This document shows positions 2,321 through 48,729 of a stretch of 64,000 nt of DNA, piece after piece. This DNA is from an uncultured Spirochaetota bacterium (GTDB lineage Bacteria > Spirochaetota > UBA4802 > UBA5550). The number at the start of each line of letters is the position of its first letter. Position 1 is the stretch's first letter. Location: positions 486,847 to 550,846 of the forward strand of contig CAWHAA010000004.1 in NCBI GenBank assembly GCA_963827275.1. The letters are read 5' to 3'. A model generated the notes under the pieces. The model was not told where the DNA came from and did no database searches. It was given only the letters and a program-made list of their open reading frames with translations. A program made the translations under genes and the position numbers.

Positions 2321-2347
2321 AATAAAAGACCCCGGGAGCACCCGGGG
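2321..2347 (-). terminator. rho-independent terminator downstream of the rod-protein gene
   Basis: minus strand reads CCCCGGG-tgct-CCCGGGG followed by TCTTTTATT; a copy of the TTACTCTGACCCC repeat (2344-2357) overlaps the 5' arm of the stem. Confidence 0.5.
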
Positions 2348-2373
2348 TCAGAGTAAGATTCATTTTATGATTG

Positions 2374-3274: not shown

Positions 3275-3727
3275 TTATACGATACGGGATTCGGGTAGAA
3301 TGCGTGCTATATTGGGTGGATAGCCCCAGATGAATTTCCAGTATGTGATATTATCTATCATATCTTTTATTATAACATAATTTTTATAACGATAGTTATC
3401 GGTATTAGCCTCTTTTAGAATGCTATTTAAGTATTTCGATACAGCATATGAAAGAATCAATGAAACCGACATTTTAAGCAGTTTCCTCAAATCCAGCATG
3501 TACTCATAATCATCAACCCGCAGCTGGATATGAAAAATGCGCCAGTCCTCCGGGTTGCTTCGTTCCTGGTATCTAACCATAGAGCCGAATCGTCCCGGAT
3601 CGGGAATATCATCCATAACCAGTTTTATGAGCGTAACAATTACATCCGACCGTGAAACACCCTTTAATTGTGCCGCCAGAGTGATCCTTTGTAAAGTCTC
3701 AGCATGAATATTAAGGGTTGTTTCCAT
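3275..3727 (-). CDS. hypothetical protein in AT-rich island (no recognisable motif)
   Basis: 150-aa ORF with I/K/N/Y-rich composition in a ~640-bp AT-rich segment that contrasts with the ~60% GC flanks. Confidence 0.4.
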   Translation of the reverse strand: METTLNIHAETLQRITLAAQLKGVSRSDVIVTLIKLVMDDIPDPGRFGSMVRYQERSNPEDWRIFHIQLRVDDYEYMLDLRKLLKMSVSLILSYAVSKYLNSILKEANTDNYRYKNYVIIKDMIDNITYWKFIWGYPPNIARILPESRIV

Positions 3728-21756: not shown

Positions 21757-21767
21757 ATGCAGTCACG

Positions 21768-24488
<2,721 letters not shown>

Positions 24489-25679: not shown

Positions 25680-25737
25680 GTTCTCTTTTCATCAGGCGCG
25701 GCTGAATGGCCGCATTGTTAATGCGATTTGTACGGTT

Positions 25738-25790
25738 TTTACTCTGACCCCTCCCGGGGATATTGAAAAGTAGAATTTTACTCTGACCCC
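25738..25790 (+). repeat. two direct copies of TTT(T)ACTCTGACCCC
   Basis: tttACTCTGACCCC 25738-25751 and ttttACTCTGACCCC 25777-25790, 30 bp upstream of the GT4 gene. Confidence 0.75.
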
Positions 25791-25820: not shown

Positions 25821-27083
25821 ATGAAGAACGTTGGATTCATATCGACAAGAATATCTGGCACTGACGGAGTAAGCCATGAGATCGAAAAATGGGCCGCCGT
25901 GCTTGAGAAGAATGGCCTGTCCTGCTCCTATTGCGCCGGGGAAGTCGATCGGCCACGGGAACGCTGTCATGTTATCGATGAAGCCCATTTCAGGCACCCG
26001 GACATCGACACTATTAACCGGAGCGTATTTGGAAAAACAATCAGGCCGGAGAAGATAACCGACCTTATCCATGTGTTATCCGCACACTTGAAAAGCGAAC
26101 TATCAAACTATATTCGGCGTTTTGATGTCGATTGTATAATAGCCGAAAATGCGCTTGCCATTCCAATGAATATCCCTTTAGGGATAGCGTTGACAGAGCT
26201 GGTTGCAGAGACCGGTATTCCGGTTATAGCCCATCACCATGACTTTGCGTGGGAGCGTGAACGATTCCTGGTCAATGCCGCTGGTGACTACTTGCAGATG
26301 TGCTTTCCGCCTGTACTGCCCTCCGTGCTCCATGTGGTAATAAATTCGCTCGCGCGGAGGTCTCTTGCGCATCGTCGGGGCGTGACAAGCACCGTTATTC
26401 CCAATACCATTGATTACGCCAATCCACCCAAACCGGCTGATCCCGGGGCAATTAAAGGGGTCAGAGTAAATGCGGGAGTGTCCGATGGTGAAATTTTTGT
26501 TCTCCAGCCCACACGCGTGGTGCCGCGCAAATGCATTGAGCGCTCAATTGACCTTGTGAGTGGACTTGCCGGCGCGGGCAAAAGGCTTGTAATCTCACAT
26601 CCCTCCGGCGATGAGGGTGATGAGTACTATACACAATTGAAGGAATACGCGAATATGCGCCAGGTAAGTCTGGTCAGCATAGAATCGGTGGTATCGCCGG
26701 GCCGGTCGGTGTCAGAGCAACGGCCGTATACCATCGGTGAGGTATATCAGGCCGCTGATCTTGTTACATATCCTTCGGCGTATGAGGGATTCGGGAACGC
26801 CTTCCTTGAGGCAATTTATTTCAGGAAGCCAATTTTAATGAATCGCTACCCGATTTTCATAGCTGACATTGAGCCAAAAGGTTTTGAGTTATGTCTTATA
26901 AATGGGTTTGTTACCGTTGATGTGATCAGGTATGTAGAGCGAATTCTTTCAGATCCGGATGCTCGTAAGAAGATGGTAGATAAAAATTATAGTATAGCGA
27001 GCGAGTGTTTTTCTTATCAAAGGCTTGAAGATCTTTTAATGGGTGTGGTGGGCTGCCTCAGACCTCGATCTCCTTGCAGATGA
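25821..27083 (+). CDS. glycosyltransferase family 4 (GT-B, Glycos_transf_1)
   Basis: C-terminal GT4 signature ...VTYPSAYEGFGNAFLEAIYFRKPIL...; 420 aa; contains an intragenic copy of GGGGTCAGAGTAAAT at 26457-26471. Confidence 0.75.
   Translation: MKNVGFISTRISGTDGVSHEIEKWAAVLEKNGLSCSYCAGEVDRPRERCHVIDEAHFRHPDIDTINRSVFGKTIRPEKITDLIHVLSAHLKSELSNYIRRFDVDCIIAENALAIPMNIPLGIALTELVAETGIPVIAHHHDFAWERERFLVNAAGDYLQMCFPPVLPSVLHVVINSLARRSLAHRRGVTSTVIPNTIDYANPPKPADPGAIKGVRVNAGVSDGEIFVLQPTRVVPRKCIERSIDLVSGLAGAGKRLVISHPSGDEGDEYYTQLKEYANMRQVSLVSIESVVSPGRSVSEQRPYTIGEVYQAADLVTYPSAYEGFGNAFLEAIYFRKPILMNRYPIFIADIEPKGFELCLINGFVTVDVIRYVERILSDPDARKKMVDKNYSIASECFSYQRLEDLLMGVVGCLRPRSPCR
26457..26471 (-). repeat. intragenic copy of the repeat core (GGGGTCAGAGTAAAT)
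   Basis: exact 15-mer shared with 34591-34605; encodes K-G-V-R-V-N in the GT4 gene. Confidence 0.7.
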
Positions 27084-27771
27084 TCATTTCCGAGTCTTCT
27101 TCCTCCGGTCGAACTCGGTAGAGTATGCCATTTCTATCTGCTATTAAACTACGCGCTTGCAAGAAATTGCGAAATTCAGATTTGACACCGCAAACCTTGA
27201 CGATGACCGCATTCGCCATCGCTGCACCCCGGACATAAATATCAAGATCACGCTTGAATTTTTCATCCGCAGATTCCTCTCTCCTTGGTGAAAAAGTAGG
27301 GGCAAATATTAGGTGAGTTCCCTGCTCGCGCATGAAATGAAAAGCATCGTCTTCAAATACATCGGCGCAGATAATCACTCCAAAAGTAATTCCATGTGCA
27401 CTGAATACCTGATATAAGTCTCCTGGTGTTATCTTGCCCACTTCAGCAAAAAAGAGTCGTTTTTTACGATAACTACCCAATAGGATGCCATTATGAAACA
27501 CAAAACAGGTATTGTAAGTTACCCCATTTGCAAGTTCTGGCATTGTCCCACCGATAACAACGGTTGACAGTTCCTTGGATAATTTTGATATTCGCTGCAA
27601 TTGACGTTTTTGGTTGTGGGGCGTTTGGTTCTGTGTGCCCAGAGCAGTGTTTACGAAAAAATATTCGGGGAAACATATAAAGTGTGGCTTGAAACTTCGA
27701 AACAGGCTGGTGTCAGAGTGAGTTATAGGGACTCCAAGCGGTTTTTGAGATATTATAATTCGAAGTTTCAT
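27058..27771 (-). CDS. carbon-nitrogen hydrolase family protein (nitrilase/amidase superfamily)
   Basis: ORF 27058-27786, probable start MKLRIIISQ; catalytic Cys context GVIICADVFED; low-GC; 3' end overlaps the convergent GT4 gene by ~26 nt. Confidence 0.7.
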   Translation of the reverse strand: MKLRIIISQKPLGVPITHSDTSLFRSFKPHFICFPEYFFVNTALGTQNQTPHNQKRQLQRISKLSKELSTVVIGGTMPELANGVTYNTCFVFHNGILLGSYRKKRLFFAEVGKITPGDLYQVFSAHGITFGVIICADVFEDDAFHFMREQGTHLIFAPTFSPRREESADEKFKRDLDIYVRGAAMANAVIVKVCGVKSEFRNFLQARSLIADRNGILYRVRPEEEDSEMIICKEIEV

Positions 27772-27839
27772 GACTACGTTTCCCATGCAACTAGTAATCT
27801 TTTATTTAATAATATCAAGAGATTTTAGTGTCAGAGTAA
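27712..27839 (-). repeat. two copies of the repeat core (GTCAGAGT / GTCAGAGTAA) downstream of the transposase gene
   Basis: GTCAGAGTg at 27712-27719 and GTCAGAGTAA at 27830-27839. Confidence 0.5.
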
Positions 27840-28002
27840 CATTATTTTAGTACTGGAATAGCATAGTAGCAAAAATATCTAGTAATCTGGGATCTATGGA
27901 CTTTAAAGATAATCAGAACTGATTTGAATTTTAAGGAGAGAAGGCTTAATAAAATAAGCTAAATATTTGTACTTCTGGAATTCCAACTGTTGCGATAACC
28001 AA

Positions 28003-28602
28003 TTACCCAAACAGGCTTTCCGGGAAGATTCGCTTTCTATACCTTTCTTCGTATTCAAGAAATTTTCCGACCCGTTCCTCGAAGGTAGCCCCCAGCTTTA
28101 CAAAATATTCATGCAGGGTGATGGTTACCGGCGGAATGAATTCCTTGCTCAAATAGCAGCGGATAGACCCATACTTGTAATCTCGGGGATCTGCGACAGT
28201 TTTGCTTTTTACCGGATTATAGGCCATATAAAGCAATATTACGAAAAACGTCGAAACCGGGTCGTCAGTAAGTTCAATAATGGTATCGCTGAAGCGCTCA
28301 TTCCAGAAGGGGCCAATCCTGCCCATGATCCGGTTATATCGCCGTGCAAATTGTGACTTGATGAACTGCATGATACGAGAAATGGACTCGCCGCCATCAA
28401 GCGTACGGATAAGAAAATGGAAATGATTGGCCATGAGGGTATAGTTGATCAGCTCAAAATGGTATTTTTCAAGCGCCAGGTCTAAGACAAAAAGCATCAA
28501 GTCTTTCATCTCATCAGAATGCATGAGGTGTTTTTTCTCGATGCAGCGTGACATGGTGTGATAGGTATGTTCCGGCAGGCAGTTCCGTTGTTTTCGCGGC
28601 AT
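28003..28602 (-). CDS. REP-associated tyrosine transposase (RAYT; IS200/IS605-like Y1 HUH transposase, TnpA_REP)
   Basis: Aligns by eye with E. coli YafM/RAYT: HuH motif YTLMANHFHFLIRT (cf. LPEHMHCIWTL), GPFWNERFSD (cf. QPRFWEHAIRN), catalytic Tyr block FVILLYMAYNPVKSK (cf. YIYINPVKHG); single gene, low GC. Confidence 0.85.
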   Translation of the reverse strand: MPRKQRNCLPEHTYHTMSRCIEKKHLMHSDEMKDLMLFVLDLALEKYHFELINYTLMANHFHFLIRTLDGGESISRIMQFIKSQFARRYNRIMGRIGPFWNERFSDTIIELTDDPVSTFFVILLYMAYNPVKSKTVADPRDYKYGSIRCYLSKEFIPPVTITLHEYFVKLGATFEERVGKFLEYEERYRKRIFPESLFG

Positions 28603-28685
28603 GGCGTCCTCCTTTGCTTGTGGGATGTCTTGCTTGCGTTTGCTGTATATACGAATGGGAGGCCGCCTTCTGGTAATAATTTTAT

Positions 28686-28700
28686 GGGGTCAGAGTAAAA
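28686..28700 (-). repeat. copy of repeat core (GGGGTCAGAGTAAAA) just upstream of the RAYT gene
   Basis: exact core match. Confidence 0.6.
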
Positions 28701-28756
28701 AAGTTAAATATAAAAATAAATTTCATTCCAAGACTCTTTGCCGTTTATTCCCTCCC

Positions 28757-28793
28757 ACGTAGCTTTCATTCCACAAAACGTAGCATTCATTCC
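28757..28793 (+). promoter_or_regulatory. tandem direct repeat ACGTAGCwTTCATTCC x2 (21-bp period) upstream of the ECF sigma gene
   Basis: acgtagctttcattcc (28757-28772) and acgtagcattcattcc (28778-28793); third TTCATTCC at 28722-28729; candidate transcription-factor binding sites. Confidence 0.4.
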
Positions 28794-28920
28794 TCTTGGC
28801 TTGCGTATTTTTAAAAGATTCGGTATTAATTATTACAACAATATGCTTCCTTTGTTCTGGTCCCGGGATGGCCGGCATGGAAGGCGTATTGTGATTTTAT
28901 TGTTATGGTGAGGAGGGAAT

Positions 28921-29475
28921 ATGTCAGAATTAAATTATGCCGATGCCGGATTTGATGAGCAATTTTCCATTAATTATCGAAAGTTTTCTCTGGCGGTAGT
29001 GAGGTTCCTGAAAAAAATCATCTATGACAGAGACATCTGCGAGGAACTGTGTCAGGATGTATTTCTCAAAGTATACGAAAGAAAAGTTCGGCTTGATCCG
29101 GATGCGCCTCAGACGCTGAATTATTTATTTACCATGGCAAAGAATATGGCCATAGATTATCTGCGGCGCAGAAGGTCCGAAGAAGACAAATTGAAGTATT
29201 TGCGCCTTGATGAAGCGCACATGGACCGCCAATTTTATGAAAATATTGAAAACATATGTCTGCGCGGGGAGATTATCTCTACTTTAAGGGATACGATTGA
29301 TTCTTTTCCTCAAAAACAACGGACTCTATTTATCGCTAAGAATTTATTCAATATATCAAAAGCCACACTATCCAAAGACAGCGGCATTTCTTTGTATCTA
29401 TTGAGGCAGATGGAGGGTGAAATCGTTCGTAAGATAAAAAGCAATCTCGGGCATTTCTTTGGATATAATGATTAA
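28921..29475 (+). CDS. ECF-type sigma-70 family sigma factor (orphan, low GC)
   Basis: Region 2 CQDVFLKVYER..., region 4 QKQRTLFIAKNLFNISKATLSKDSGISLYLLRQ; no adjacent anti-sigma. Confidence 0.75.
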   Translation: MSELNYADAGFDEQFSINYRKFSLAVVRFLKKIIYDRDICEELCQDVFLKVYERKVRLDPDAPQTLNYLFTMAKNMAIDYLRRRRSEEDKLKYLRLDEAHMDRQFYENIENICLRGEIISTLRDTIDSFPQKQRTLFIAKNLFNISKATLSKDSGISLYLLRQMEGEIVRKIKSNLGHFFGYND

Positions 29476-29672
29476 CAGAATAATCTTGACAGGAAAAACA
29501 TAAAAAAGATAAAGAAAAAATTCGAGAACCGGGACTCCGCGTCCGTGGCGCGCGACGGCGGTACGTCCGTCTATCTATTTAAGAAGATAGAGCGTGAGTT
29601 CAACCGGCGGGTATGGGACTCCCTATGGCACTATTTTTCCGGCGCAGAATAATGTATTGACAAAAAAAGAGA

Positions 29673-33878: not shown

Positions 33879-33967
33879 GCTCTGACACCTCGTTTTCAGA
33901 ATATTTTACTCTGACCCCGGTTTCCCATTTTCAATTTACTCTGACACCAAATATTTACTCTGACCCC
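33879..33967 (+). repeat. tandem array of four ACTCTGAC(C/A)CC repeat cores
   Basis: gCTCTGACACC 33879-33889; ttttACTCTGACCCC 33904-33918; tttACTCTGACACC 33935-33948; tttACTCTGACCCC 33954-33967; lies between icmF and the convergent sulfatase gene (last copy overlaps its 3' end). Confidence 0.75.
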
Positions 33968-35892
33968 AGGCCTTTCCTTCGTGGCGGTTCAGATGTAGGC
34001 CAGAGTCTGTTTGAATTCAGTATTTTCTGATTAATGTAAATATCCATGAGCCTTTTTCGCAGACGCTTCATCACTGCGGGCTTCCCTCTCCCGGCAAGAT
34101 TGTGCTCCTCCCGGGGATCGGTCGTGAGGTTAAAGAGATATTCTTTGCCGGTTTCGGAATGATGAATGTATTTCAATGGATATTCCACAATGCCAAGGAA
34201 CAGGCCATTATACGGTTGTATCAAGTATACCGGTCCTGTTTTTACGCCAGGTGACACCAAAGATTGCCCGAGAAAATGCGTTTTCACGCCTGATATGCCC
34301 GCAATGTCGAGTATGGTGGGTGCGATATCGAGCTGGGAATAGGCCTCGTTGAGGATGCGTGGCCCAATTCTGCTGTTCCATAGTATCAGCAGGGGGGTCC
34401 GGAAGACCTCATCGTAGAACCCGACTTCATTGTGCGAGATTCCATGTTCATTAATTGGAAAACTGTGATCGCCGGTGATAATTACAGCTGTGTTGGCGTG
34501 TTGCGGTCGTTTGGCTATTCCTTTCAACAGGTCTCGAAGACCCTGATCGGATAAATGGATGGAATTGGCGTAGCGCTGATCGATCGTAGTGGGGTCAGAG
34601 TAAATCAAACACTTATCTTTCGGTACGTAATCGAACCACATATGGTTCGATGTCGTTGCCAGGAGAGCGAAGACCGGCCTGCCGCCGTTCCGCTGCCTGA
34701 TGCGTTCCATCTGGCGGAGGCATAGTTTATAGAAGAGGCCGTCCTCGGGGCCCCAGCCCCATACCTGCGGGGCGTCCGCATCAGTCAAAAATTCGTAGGC
34801 GGAATGGATATGCCGGAAGCCGGCCTTTTTCATAAAGGCCCTGGTGTTATCGAAATCGAGCTCGCGGGCGGCCTGCATGAACAGTGTGTCATATCCGGCA
34901 TCGTGCAGTAGCTCCGGGAGCGCCCTGAAGGAAAGCTCGGGGAATGACGTGAAGATTTTTCCGCGAATGCTCGGTAGCACGGACAGCAAGACCGCGGCCT
35001 GTCCCTTGCATGTCTGGACGGAATTGCCGTAGAAGCGCTCGACGTAGAGGCCGCGGGGGATGAGTGAATTGAATACCGGCGTTATCTCCTTTCCCTCCGG
35101 GGACTTCTTCCTGACTACATTGGCGTTATATGATTCAACCATTACCAGGACAATATCCGGCCTGGATGATCCCCTCGGAAGGGCCGGCGACGCGTTGAAT
35201 GTTGTCAGGTACGGGTATCCGCTAACGCTGATGCCGGCCATGGGGTCCTGGAAGGGATAGCGGAGGATTCCCCGCAGGAGGCCGGTGAATTCATCATGGG
35301 TCTTGACCGGCAGCAGCAGTATCACCGCATAGAGCAGAGCGGCCACGACTGTTTTTTTCGCCGCATGCGGGTATTCTGGCGGGGATACCAGAATTTTTTT
35401 CCGCCAGTGAAGCATGAGCAGGAGTACGAGAGATATCCCGATTATGATGAAGAACCAACGGGGAAAAATTCCGATGATGGTGTACCAGGATTCCTTGTAA
35501 AAGCCGAGGGTGAAATTATCGATAATGATGGAACAGTTGAGCGGGATGTGTGTTATGAGATAGTAGGTGTGTATCATTGTAAACAGCGTTAAAAAGAGCA
35601 TGTTGATGACAAGCCGTACCGCCCGCACCCTGCTGGCCGCAAGGTTGATAAGCTGGACCGCGACAGTGGCCGTGAATATGCTGTAACAGATATACAGTGC
35701 CGATGTTATGGAGAGATCGAAAGGCCGTATGCCGTAACGCCGCTGGAATCCGTATAAAAAAAATATCATGAGGATGACTGTCAGGGTATTCATGCAGCCA
35801 AGATCCAGGGGGAGCCACTCACGTACCAGCTCGCGATATCTGCGGGCTCTCTTTGTGATTATGTCTAACGTGGTGGTATCGCTCCTTGTCAT
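33955..35892 (-). CDS. LTA-synthase/sulfatase family membrane protein (alkaline-phosphatase superfamily)
   Basis: 5 N-terminal TM helices; extracytoplasmic sulfatase domain (DIVLVMVESYNAN..., ITGDHSFPINEHG); contains intragenic repeat copy 34591-34605. Confidence 0.8.
   Translation of the reverse strand: MTRSDTTTLDIITKRARRYRELVREWLPLDLGCMNTLTVILMIFFLYGFQRRYGIRPFDLSITSALYICYSIFTATVAVQLINLAASRVRAVRLVINMLFLTLFTMIHTYYLITHIPLNCSIIIDNFTLGFYKESWYTIIGIFPRWFFIIIGISLVLLLMLHWRKKILVSPPEYPHAAKKTVVAALLYAVILLLPVKTHDEFTGLLRGILRYPFQDPMAGISVSGYPYLTTFNASPALPRGSSRPDIVLVMVESYNANVVRKKSPEGKEITPVFNSLIPRGLYVERFYGNSVQTCKGQAAVLLSVLPSIRGKIFTSFPELSFRALPELLHDAGYDTLFMQAARELDFDNTRAFMKKAGFRHIHSAYEFLTDADAPQVWGWGPEDGLFYKLCLRQMERIRQRNGGRPVFALLATTSNHMWFDYVPKDKCLIYSDPTTIDQRYANSIHLSDQGLRDLLKGIAKRPQHANTAVIITGDHSFPINEHGISHNEVGFYDEVFRTPLLILWNSRIGPRILNEAYSQLDIAPTILDIAGISGVKTHFLGQSLVSPGVKTGPVYLIQPYNGLFLGIVEYPLKYIHHSETGKEYLFNLTTDPREEHNLAGRGKPAVMKRLRKRLMDIYINQKILNSNRLWPTSEPPRRKGLGSE
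34591..34605 (-). repeat. intragenic copy of the repeat core (GGGGTCAGAGTAAAT)
   Basis: identical 15-mer to 26457-26471; encodes L-I-Y-S-D-P on the sulfatase coding strand. Confidence 0.7.
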
Positions 35893-43307: not shown

Positions 43308-43439
43308 CCGATAGTTATCGGTACTGTTTAAGTATTAATTTACTCTGACCCTGCGACGTCACACATTAATTCCGATAGTTATCGGTAATAAAGTTACTCT
43401 GACCCCGCAATCACATGCAAGAATCCCGATAGTTATCGG
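43308..43439 (+). repeat. composite repeat array: 3 x CCGATAGTTATCGG(TA) palindrome interleaved with 2 x TT(T)ACTCTGACCC(C)
   Basis: palindromes at 43308-43321, 43372-43385, 43426-43439; cores at 43339-43351, 43394-43406; spacer 43407-43425 (gcaatcacatgcaag...) recurs at 48698-48715. Confidence 0.8.
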
Positions 43440-48678: not shown

Positions 48679-48682
48679 TTAT

Positions 48683-48729
48683 TTACTCTGACTCCCGCAA
48701 TCACCTGCAATGATACCGATAGTTATCGG
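48683..48729 (+). repeat. composite repeat unit TTTACTCTGACTCCC-N18-CCGATAGTTATCGG
   Basis: 5 nt after the antiporter stop; near-identical to the unit at 43394-43439. Confidence 0.75.

Follow-up and report, generated by a model that had tools for sequence, protein, structure and literature searches.

The genome of an uncultured Spirochaetota bacterium (GCA_963827275.1, contig CAWHAA010000004.1) carries, within a stretch of 64 kb that we analysed as a whole and call the window hereafter, a gene (28003..28602, minus strand) encoding a 199-aa transposase of the REP-associated tyrosine transposase (RAYT) class, REP standing for repetitive extragenic palindromic. Copies of one short sequence motif lie on both sides of this gene, and further copies are scattered over the window. 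We consider it probable that the gene encodes an active-looking HUH/Y1 nuclease-ligase of the RAYT class with the motif as its cognate site, housed in a recently moved cassette of 0.88 kb that is bounded by motif copies on the same strand. The case is built on the class of the protein and the conservation of its catalytic residues, on an oriented association of gene and motif, on a right boundary of the cassette that is defined to the base, on the presence of a 99.3%-identical unit at two locations, and on an orthologous site that is empty.

The transposase and its class

The open reading frame (ORF) is intact and carries the blocks MANHFHFLIRT, FWNERF and YMAYNPVK, in which H60-F-H62, Y125 and N129 form the predicted active site. 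Pfam recognises a single domain, Y1_Tnp (PF01797; 40.6 bits for a gathering threshold of 23), over residues 11-104, and the structural model shows helices in the conserved tail (residues 140-199). The best NCBIfam model is REP_Tyr_transpos (NF047646; E=2e-20, model positions 2-145 of 146), at 73.2 bits for a curated equivalog cut-off of 80, and the IS200 model (NF033573, transpos_IS200) reaches only 23 bits for a cut-off of 55. The preliminary description of this locus had announced a motif-for-motif alignment with E. coli YafM; such an alignment is obtained with a profile of 40 family members, which finds TnpA-REP in the PDB (4er8, E=1.3e-5, residues 1-149), but not with the single sequence, which does not reach it. 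In the same family-profile search, the TnpA proteins of ISDra2 and of the IS200 family come out only at E ~0.2.

In the family-profile alignment, H60/H62, Y125 and N129 face H59/H61, Y115 and N119 of 4er8, which are the active-site residues of TnpA-REP (PMC3479197). All 40 homologues, of constant length, keep H60 and N129, and at least 90% of them keep H62 and Y125. The fold tells the same story: the AlphaFold model (pLDDT 93.4) has 4er8_A as its top PDB match in Foldseek (E=1.1e-7, 170 columns, target-normalised TM-score of 0.74), with ISDra2 and IS608 TnpA at E=4e-5 or weaker. The signature Y---NP is present as Y125-M-A-Y-N129-P130; in the scheme of Quentin et al. 2018 (PMC6006769), Y---NP defines class 2 (TnpA-REP-like) and Y---Q defines IS200. 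Judged from its sequence and its modelled fold, the protein, thus, belongs to class 2 (RAYT/TnpA-REP) and not to the classical IS200 transposases, in agreement with the class first proposed for it, even though a protein of 199 aa with NHFH, WN and Y[IM]xYNP has no exact counterpart among the subclasses listed in that scheme. No TnpB-like ORF was found near the gene among the ORFs of the window, so that the gene does stand alone, as had been claimed.

Homologues that are 48-88% identical, nearly all of 196-200 aa, come from metagenome-assembled genomes (MAGs) of uncultured Spirochaetota and Leptospirales. At 50% clustering, the family profile collects 73 representatives at E<=1e-30 and grades smoothly into a superfamily of 27,496. 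The assembly index has no exact match to the window protein on record; on plasmids, only relatives at 31% identity or less were found, and in phages none.

The cassette, its ends and its site

The gene is bounded, on its own strand, by copies of TTACTCTGAC(C/A)CC, that is TTTACTCTGAC(C/A)CC, a non-palindromic motif of 13-14 nt whose fuller core is GGGGTCAGAGTAAA, the other strand reading TTTACTCTGACCCC. The left (upstream) copy at 28686..28699 (minus strand) is a perfect 14-mer that reads TTTACTCTGACCCC on the coding strand and stands 84 nt before the ATG; the right (downstream) copy at 27828..27840 (minus strand) reads GTTACTCTGACAC on the coding strand, lies 163 nt past the stop codon, and forms the exact right end of the repeated unit. 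The mobile cassette, ~0.88 kb at 27828..28715 (minus strand), comprises in order an AT-rich leader, the left motif, a putative promoter/leader region, the RAYT gene, a 3' untranslated stretch of ~160 nt, and the right motif.

We followed the association between gene and motif in a comparison set of 80 loci from uncultured Spirochaetota. In the close clade, which groups the loci at roughly 60% protein identity or more, the ATG is preceded at 55-135 nt by the motif core, in coding-strand orientation, in all 33 of 33 loci, against 2.6% of random windows of the same size, and a second copy on the same strand follows 100-320 nt downstream in 29 of 31, against 7% of random windows; the tie between repeat and gene family that had been supposed from the window is, thus, found in the relatives. 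Distant clades carry changed cores, such as TGCTCTGACCCC, GGCTCTGACCCC, TTACTCTGAGCA, the palindromic GGCTCAGAGCC, ATCTCTGGCAC, and GGCTCTGGCC, with CTCTGAG and CTCTGGC among the core variants. In most loci, the commonest non-trivial 10-mer is the variant that flanks the local RAYT. When near copies (within 700 nt of a RAYT) and far copies were scored separately in a table of genomes by variants, the two agreed in most genomes; co42_271 and Bin_56_1 hold several families each, with every variant beside its own RAYT paralogue. At the level of sequence, this co-variation of motif variant with RAYT clade and genome supports a link between them, short of proof.

In some distant clades, the arrangement of the motif differs: an inverted copy stands 8-23 nt past the stop codon in L029, L038, L059, L065, L075-L077, and L080, and another is found at the 3' end of the gene in L055/L056. 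If the upstream copy is in coding-strand orientation, as in L055/L056, L059, and L075-L077, the two form a bracket that resembles terminal inverted repeats (TIRs).

That gene and motif are neighbours by mere coincidence, or that the gene is an inert IS200-type relic, is highly improbable. One could invoke for such a reading the NCBIfam score below its cut-off, as well as the fate of one of the three flanking copies that the preliminary description had cited. Two of them stand, at 28686 and at 27828-27840 (given there as 27830); the third, given as 27712, is a doubtful copy, TCACTCTGACACC at 27709..27722 (minus strand), which has one mismatch in the 10-mer core and lies inside the coding sequence of the neighbouring CN-hydrolase gene, where it encodes THSDT. 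This copy is found in three relatives whose site holds the RAYT gene (the window, L088, and L089) and is missing from three whose site is empty; chance and shared ancestry would account for it equally well and cannot be told apart. Against a relic or a coincidence stand the intact ORF, catalytic residues that are 90-100% conserved in 40 homologues of constant length, an enrichment of the motif in the window that none of 100 shuffles equals, the positional conservation described above with its low background, and the 99.3%-identical copy found elsewhere; the comparative counts already refute this reading.

This other copy is carried by a Logan contig of 966 bp (L082), 99.3% identical to the window over 27828-28715, that ends exactly at ...GTTACTCTGACAC. 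Its left flank differs from that of the window and is homologous to the YqeY-side flank of L001, an 88%-identical homologue located between yqeY and priA; DNA similarity between the window and L001 is itself limited to 28001-28702, i.e., from the stop codon to the left motif. Four Logan contigs with a 100%-identical CN-hydrolase start at 27857, exactly 30 nt (k-1) inside the right end, and one NCBI MAG contig starts at 27846, 19 nt inside it; in all, five independent assemblies are broken at or near this end. Contig starts at k-1 inside the right end are the behaviour of a de Bruijn graph at the edge of a repeat, which puts the boundary at 27828. Many of the homologues in public metagenomes lie on contigs of ~1 kb, as would be expected if assemblies break where the unit ends; a metagenome scan with the exact 26-mer of the right end gave no hits.

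The same picture emerges within single genomes. Two MAGs hold 5 and 6 RAYT genes, including copies that are at least 99% identical; the MAG MFD02979.bin.1.65 has four such copies, whose common sequence begins at a motif copy and, in three of the four, stops at ...TTTTACTCTGACAC. In L011, L013, and L042, identity is lost right after ...TTTTACTCTGACAC (a right end also given as ...TTACTCTGACAC), beyond which the flanks are unrelated, and no target-site duplication was seen at these three junctions. On the 5' side, the edge of identity between near-identical copies of one genome falls at or beside the left motif. The domesticated, single-copy behaviour expected from the preliminary description is, thus, not what these genomes display. 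Other paralogue lineages sit in conserved synteny, namely at the YqeY/PriA locus (L001, L020, L015, L025, and L009) and in the set L005/L008/L012, and the RAYT family combines long vertical persistence with occasional movement.

The site itself can be compared with and without the cassette. On its two sides lie a CN_hydrolase gene (27058..27771, minus strand; PF00795, 58.7 bits) and an extracytoplasmic function (ECF)-type sigma factor gene (28921..29475, plus strand; TIGR02937, 59.9 bits for a cut-off of 42.9), and the gene order FecR / glycosyltransferase / CN-hydrolase on one side and sigma / TetR / IcmF on the other is kept in RAYT-less relatives. One example, a JGI contig whose CN-hydrolase is 79% identical, reads IcmF-like, TetR, sigma, 344 nt, CN-hydrolase, glycosyltransferase, FecR, homoserine dehydrogenase, and threonine synthase, without a RAYT between sigma and CN-hydrolase. 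The metagenome loci L090, L091, and L092 have the same arrangement with an empty RAYT site, and L088 and L089 are filled like the window. L090 and the window share ...GGAATGAAAT, a conserved intergenic stretch; what follows it is a solo TGCTCTGACCCC after 7 nt in L090, and the cassette's left motif after 24 nt in the window. The empty site of L092 has a solo TTACTCTGACC, and that of L091 has two motif-like copies bracketing other repeats. The cassette of the filled site, thus, stands between two motif copies, where the empty site has a single one.

The low GC content of the region, noted in the preliminary description as an AT-rich block, is real (0.36-0.44 over 27001-29500 for 0.55 in the whole window), but its interpretation as a horizontally acquired island is ruled out by the conserved synteny in RAYT-less relatives and by the low GC of the family as a whole. 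Indeed, the RAYT has a lower GC content than its surroundings in 67 of 68 loci (0.38 vs. 0.50), copies in conserved synteny included, so that low GC characterises this RAYT family as such and does not point to a recent import. The CN-hydrolase and the ECF sigma, which had been counted as part of the island, appear from their synteny to be ordinary core genes. Three to four GGAATGAA(N)GCTAC-like boxes were also seen at 28715-28800, pointing toward the CN-hydrolase and conserved in relatives, including L090 and L091; they may act as a promoter or an operator and may depend on the ECF sigma, and the cassette now parts them from the CN-hydrolase gene.

Between the left motif and the gene, the leader/promoter region (28603..28685, minus strand) holds a box conserved family-wide, ATTCGTATATAC at 28645-28656. 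When loci are aligned on it, the CGTATA box and, upstream, a T-run with a TTCAAT-like element are kept in nearly all 77 loci, and the order shared by the family is a T-run, the motif, a few bases, a TTTTTCAAT-like element, ~17 nt, (A)TTCGTATA, ~35-45 nt, the ribosome-binding site, and the ATG. We infer a promoter from this order; a sigma-70 promoter scan gave hits that were no commoner than in shuffled sequence. The leader (28603..28685) folds at -9.4 kcal/mol (z = -2.06). Just upstream of the TTCGTATA box lies a stretch containing CCTCC, and the duplex GGCGGCCTCC / GGAGGACGCC reaches -18.1 kcal/mol in the window; over the loci, pairing between this anti-Shine-Dalgarno stretch and the Shine-Dalgarno sequence is stronger within a locus than between loci (mean of -8.1 vs. 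-6.8 kcal/mol, p=0.013). The GGCGGCCTCC / GGAGGACGCC pairing could sequester the ribosome-binding site. In some insertion sequences, read-through transcripts are inhibited by a fold-back which the pairing in this leader resembles. At the other end of the cassette, a sigma-70-like TTGCTA-17 nt-TAAAAT at 27844-27872 (minus strand) was observed inside the right end, directed outward to the CN-hydrolase start 57 nt beyond; this consensus match could replace the native CN-hydrolase promoter, displaced by the cassette.

Dispersed motif copies and the explanations they allow

Counts of dispersed repeats in this genome cover the 64-kb window. With at most one mismatch, GTCAGAGTAA has 21 matches for 1.43 expected, a number reached in 0 of 100 shuffles, and is the top over-represented 10-mer. 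Beyond the flanking copies, we found 13 further motif copies at 8 sites (11 intergenic and 2 intragenic), which confirms that the repeat is dispersed. Copies are ~11-fold enriched in non-coding DNA, and solo copies and short arrays of the end motif occur at ~1 per 4 kb. GC skew is mostly positive across the window, and the copies are on both strands (6 vs. 10), which suggests no simple bias with respect to the replication fork.

Head-to-tail pairs are found on the plus strand at 21767..21823 (copies 21767-21780 and 21810-21823, interleaved with the palindrome CGATAACTATCG) and at 25738..25790 (copies 25738-25751 and 25777-25790, both perfect, between the FecR-domain and glycosyltransferase genes), the latter array being identical in strain GCA_964430645.1. 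A head-to-tail triplet lies at 33905..33967 (plus strand; copies 33905, 33935, and 33954), downstream of the IcmF-like gene, and two copies at 43339..43406 (plus strand) belong to a tandem 54-nt composite unit made of the motif, 22 nt, and then the palindrome CCGATAGTTATCGG. A copy at 48682..48695 (plus strand), 4 nt past a stop codon, is the first part of a third such unit. Another copy at 2344..2357 (minus strand), between two minus-strand genes, contributes its GACCCC as the 5' arm of a terminator-like hairpin of 9 bp (GACCCCGGG-TGCT-CCCGGGGTC followed by TTTT, at 2344-2377 on the minus strand; -13.3 kcal/mol, z = -4.77). The two intragenic copies are perfect 14-mers: one at 26457..26470 (minus strand) inside the glycosyltransferase gene (25821..27083), where it encodes GVRVN in a variable linker of ~60 nt whose length is the same as in the 82%-identical L088 orthologue (KCIRDT there), and one at 34591..34604 (minus strand) on the coding strand of a sulfatase ORF (33955..35892, minus strand).

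One could read all this as a classical domesticated RAYT of the REPIN kind, i.e., a single-copy, vertically inherited, immobile gene that spreads palindromic REPs or bacterial interspersed mosaic elements (BIMEs). The class of the protein would fit, as would the flanking repeat being the most abundant oligomer of the region and the several paralogue lineages in conserved synteny, which suit a long vertical inheritance. The repeat, however, is not of this type. As single-stranded DNA, 11 of 13 motif copies are no more stable when folded than shuffled sequence; the other two are the 2347 copy (2344..2357), the only one to hold the motif inside a hairpin, and the segment at 25710, which owes its good fold to an unrelated hairpin upstream of the motif. 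The ends of the cassette show no significant structure either (left, 28660-28725, z = +1.18; right, 27800-27865, z = +0.88; 27828-27970, z = -0.22), and no GT[AG]G tag accompanies the motif. Where copies neighbour each other within 150 nt, 34 arrangements are direct and 2 inverted (TACTCTGAC), or, with the GCTCTGAC variant, 56 and 12; the gene, too, has direct flanks, whereas REPINs are inverted. With no consistent hairpin, no GT[AG]G tag, and head-to-tail arrays, this repeat is not a REP/BIME-type element, contrary to the reading first proposed. Adding the up to 5-6 copies per genome, some at least 99% identical, and the presence of the window unit at two loci, we regard a REPIN-type system as improbable.

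Two other ideas about the motif were considered and rejected. All four informative copies of the window are in the sense of the upstream gene, but the bias in orientation relative to transcription vanishes over all loci (15 sense vs. 13 antisense in co-directional intergenic regions, or 66 vs. 59 with a wider core). A hairpin or terminator role fares no better, with z near 0 for 11 of 13 copies and a single motif inside a strong hairpin (2347). Rfam gave no match above the gathering score anywhere in the window; together with the lack of an orientation bias, this argues against an RNA or terminator role.

A second repeat keeps company with the first. It is an 18-20-nt palindrome, (TTAC)CGATA(AC/GT)TATCG(GTAA), interleaved with the main motif in arrays; its motif CCGATAGTTATCGG has 7 sites in the window (12 matches when both strands of the near-palindrome are counted) for 0.41 expected, at 3389-3402, 21790-21803, 21833-21846, 43308-43321, 43372-43385, 43426-43439, and 48716-48729, and it enters into the 54-nt composite unit with the main motif at 43.3 kb and 48.7 kb. 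It also occurs in L002, L007, L008, L012, L020, L026, L027, L042, and L088, with 16 occurrences of its 12-mer core in the fetched loci for ~0.2 expected from length alone. It was not found beside RAYT genes. By analogy with the sites of integration host factor in BIMEs, it may be a protein-binding site.

The main rival explanation is that an autonomous IS200-like element merely targets a motif that pre-exists in the host, such as a protein-binding or RNA site under selection, and has no part in its spread. Several observations lean this way: empty orthologous sites already hold a solo motif, the arrays are stable between strains, and the motif is interleaved with a palindrome (CGATA[AC/GT]TATCG) that resembles a protein-binding site. 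Motif copies are also kept at orthologous positions while the spacers diverge, as in the pair L011/L017; in four more distant orthologous pairs, motif positions are conserved, with one possible extra module of 55 nt (L025 vs. L015), the divergence of these alignments being too great for a mobile unit to be delimited. Insertion sequences are, moreover, known to target REPs, for example ISPpu9 (PMC8450116). We nevertheless hold this explanation to be rather unlikely. One genome can carry two variants, each beside its own paralogue (co42_271 and Bin_56_1), which is hard to ascribe to a single host factor; the cassette carries the motif at its own right end, so that every insertion would add a copy and by itself lead to head-to-tail arrays; and the balanced orientation (15 vs. 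13) and the absence of an Rfam match speak against an RNA or terminator site.

The mechanism that we propose for the RAYT and its cognate motif is drawn by analogy with IS200/IS605 and E. coli TnpA-REP. The enzyme would recognise the motif on one strand and nick the DNA at a set distance from it: at the right end, the cut would fall immediately 3' of ...GACAC, and at the left end some 12-25 nt 5' of the motif. It would form a 5'-phosphotyrosine link via Y125, with a metal ion held by H60, H62, and N129, and the strand would then be rejoined at another site. As the right end carries the motif and the empty site holds one already, each insertion would yield a head-to-tail pair, and repeated insertion of short segments would build head-to-tail arrays. 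Cleavage at the motif, together with its strand and cut position, is what the analogy predicts, and the solo copies would have been spread by the enzyme rather than used by it as targets. Moving or copying motif-bounded segments in this way would explain the intergenic arrays, the empty sites with a single motif, and the co-variation of motif and RAYT clade. Motif-bounded segments other than the RAYT gene were observed as well: in L002 (10870-11436), a 283-nt unit is repeated three times with the motif in each repeat, and in L091 (~620-1000), at the orthologous sigma/CN-hydrolase site, two motif copies enclose tandem repeats of ~45 nt. Both cases suggest that such segments can accumulate.

Several points weigh against a cognate motif and a recently moved cassette. 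The NCBIfam score stays under its equivalog cut-off, and the residues of E. coli TnpA-REP that contact GTAG (W94, Q95, E100, H101, and R104; PMC6006769) are mostly replaced in the family-profile alignment, with only W94 kept (as W100), Q95 changed to N, E100 to a variable residue (D in the window protein), H101 to T, and R104 to E. The left boundary is known within ~12-25 nt, in AT-rich sequence. To our knowledge, hairpins are what the Y1 enzymes studied to date recognise, and folding revealed no consistent hairpin at the motif here. The evidence of co-variation comes from related genomes, which are not phylogenetically independent. Some pairs (L007 vs. L011, L021/L022, and L049/L050) share the 5' motif and lose identity at or before the stop codon, and gene conversion or recombination may contribute beside a clean end-to-end transposition. 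Finally, the comparison of the window with strain GCA_964430645.1 (98.9% identity over 6.8 kb) gave single-nucleotide polymorphisms and a run of N without any indel at the arrays, and no movement of a solo copy was seen between the two.

A bolder version of the cognate-motif reading, which we put forward only tentatively, would make this a REP system without palindromes, in which a RAYT-class enzyme reads a linear sequence of 13 nt and moves the DNA lying between two same-strand copies to another copy. If this were true, the gene would be a self-mobilising cassette, and the intergenic arrays, some with other repeats in them (L091, the 54-nt composite units), would have built up as products of a cassette shuffling run by an HUH enzyme.

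Relation to known systems and significance

The closest described kind is the TIRYT/TIRtron: RAYT-like genes flanked by repeats that are not REPs, many of which share GGGGWSAS (Di Nocera et al. 2013, PMC3733652), equated with subclass 2.1 of TnpA-Y1 by Quentin et al. 2018 (PMC6006769). The likeness lies in the GGGGTCAG of the window (followed by AGTAA), which fits GGGGWSAS exactly; in the HuH signature, NH[YF]H there and NHFH here; in the fact that some TIRtron flanking repeats are moderately abundant dispersed families, in dimers or clusters; and in the TIR-like bracket of the distant clades L059, L075, L076, and L077 of this RAYT family. The flanks in the clade of the window are, however, direct (29/31) and not terminal inverted repeats, and the dispersed copies form head-to-tail arrays. 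The protein also differs: subclass 2.1 has a median of 238 aa with a tail of the helix-turn-helix/DnaA_C type, whereas Pfam finds only Y1_Tnp in the 199 aa here, and the W and Y motifs are WN and Y[IM]xYNP instead of W[EQ] and YIELNP. Evidence for mobility of the gene-bearing unit is a further difference.

With E. coli TnpA-REP (YafM/RayT, 4ER8), the protein shares its best profile and fold match, as well as the conserved HUH, Y---NP, and metal-ligand Asn. Like TnpA-REP and REPIN-RAYT systems, it is a single gene flanked by the most abundant short repeat, and each paralogue has its own repeat variant, as is the case for tnpA-REP (PMC6006769). It departs from them in a repeat without palindrome, GT[AG]G tag, or inverted pairs, and in its mostly replaced GTAG-contacting residues. 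One has to keep in mind that REP-associated Groups 2 and 3 of Bertels & Rainey have 1.3-1.8 copies per replicon, with duplicates in only 0.8% for Group 3; here, by contrast, there are several copies per genome, some near-identical, and the gene itself moves.

IS200/IS605 elements, such as IS608 and ISDra2, share with the cassette the Y1/HUH catalytic fold, a discrete unit (~0.9 kb here) in several near-identical copies, asymmetric ends in the same orientation with no target-site duplication visible (L011, L013, and L042), and a possible fold-back sequestering the ribosome-binding site. The differences are a Y---NP in place of Y---Q, with a low score for the IS200 model; the lack of subterminal hairpins, none of which was found at either end of the cassette; an end motif that is also dispersed as solo copies and short arrays; and many copies in conserved synteny across genomes. 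The RAYT and TIRYT surveys consulted make no mention of Spirochaetes with RAYTs or TIRYTs, and our full-text literature search found no description of this RAYT family.

How RAYTs spread their repeats is unresolved in the field: the E. coli enzyme is monomeric and auto-inhibited, and even strand transfer is unclear. REP-associated RAYT genes themselves no longer move, whereas this cassette moved recently and has a right end defined to the base. The locus, thus, joins a recently moved cassette, an orthologous empty site, and a short linear motif that changes together with the protein over dozens of genomes. There is also a practical lesson, as units of the cassette type break short-read assemblies, and the low GC around them is not to be read as horizontal transfer. 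The GAC, GAG, and GGC cores would be natural specificity variants, and the motif would offer a simple in vitro substrate to study how class-2 Y1 enzymes choose and join DNA. With this family, RAYT-type systems are extended to the uncultured Spirochaetota.

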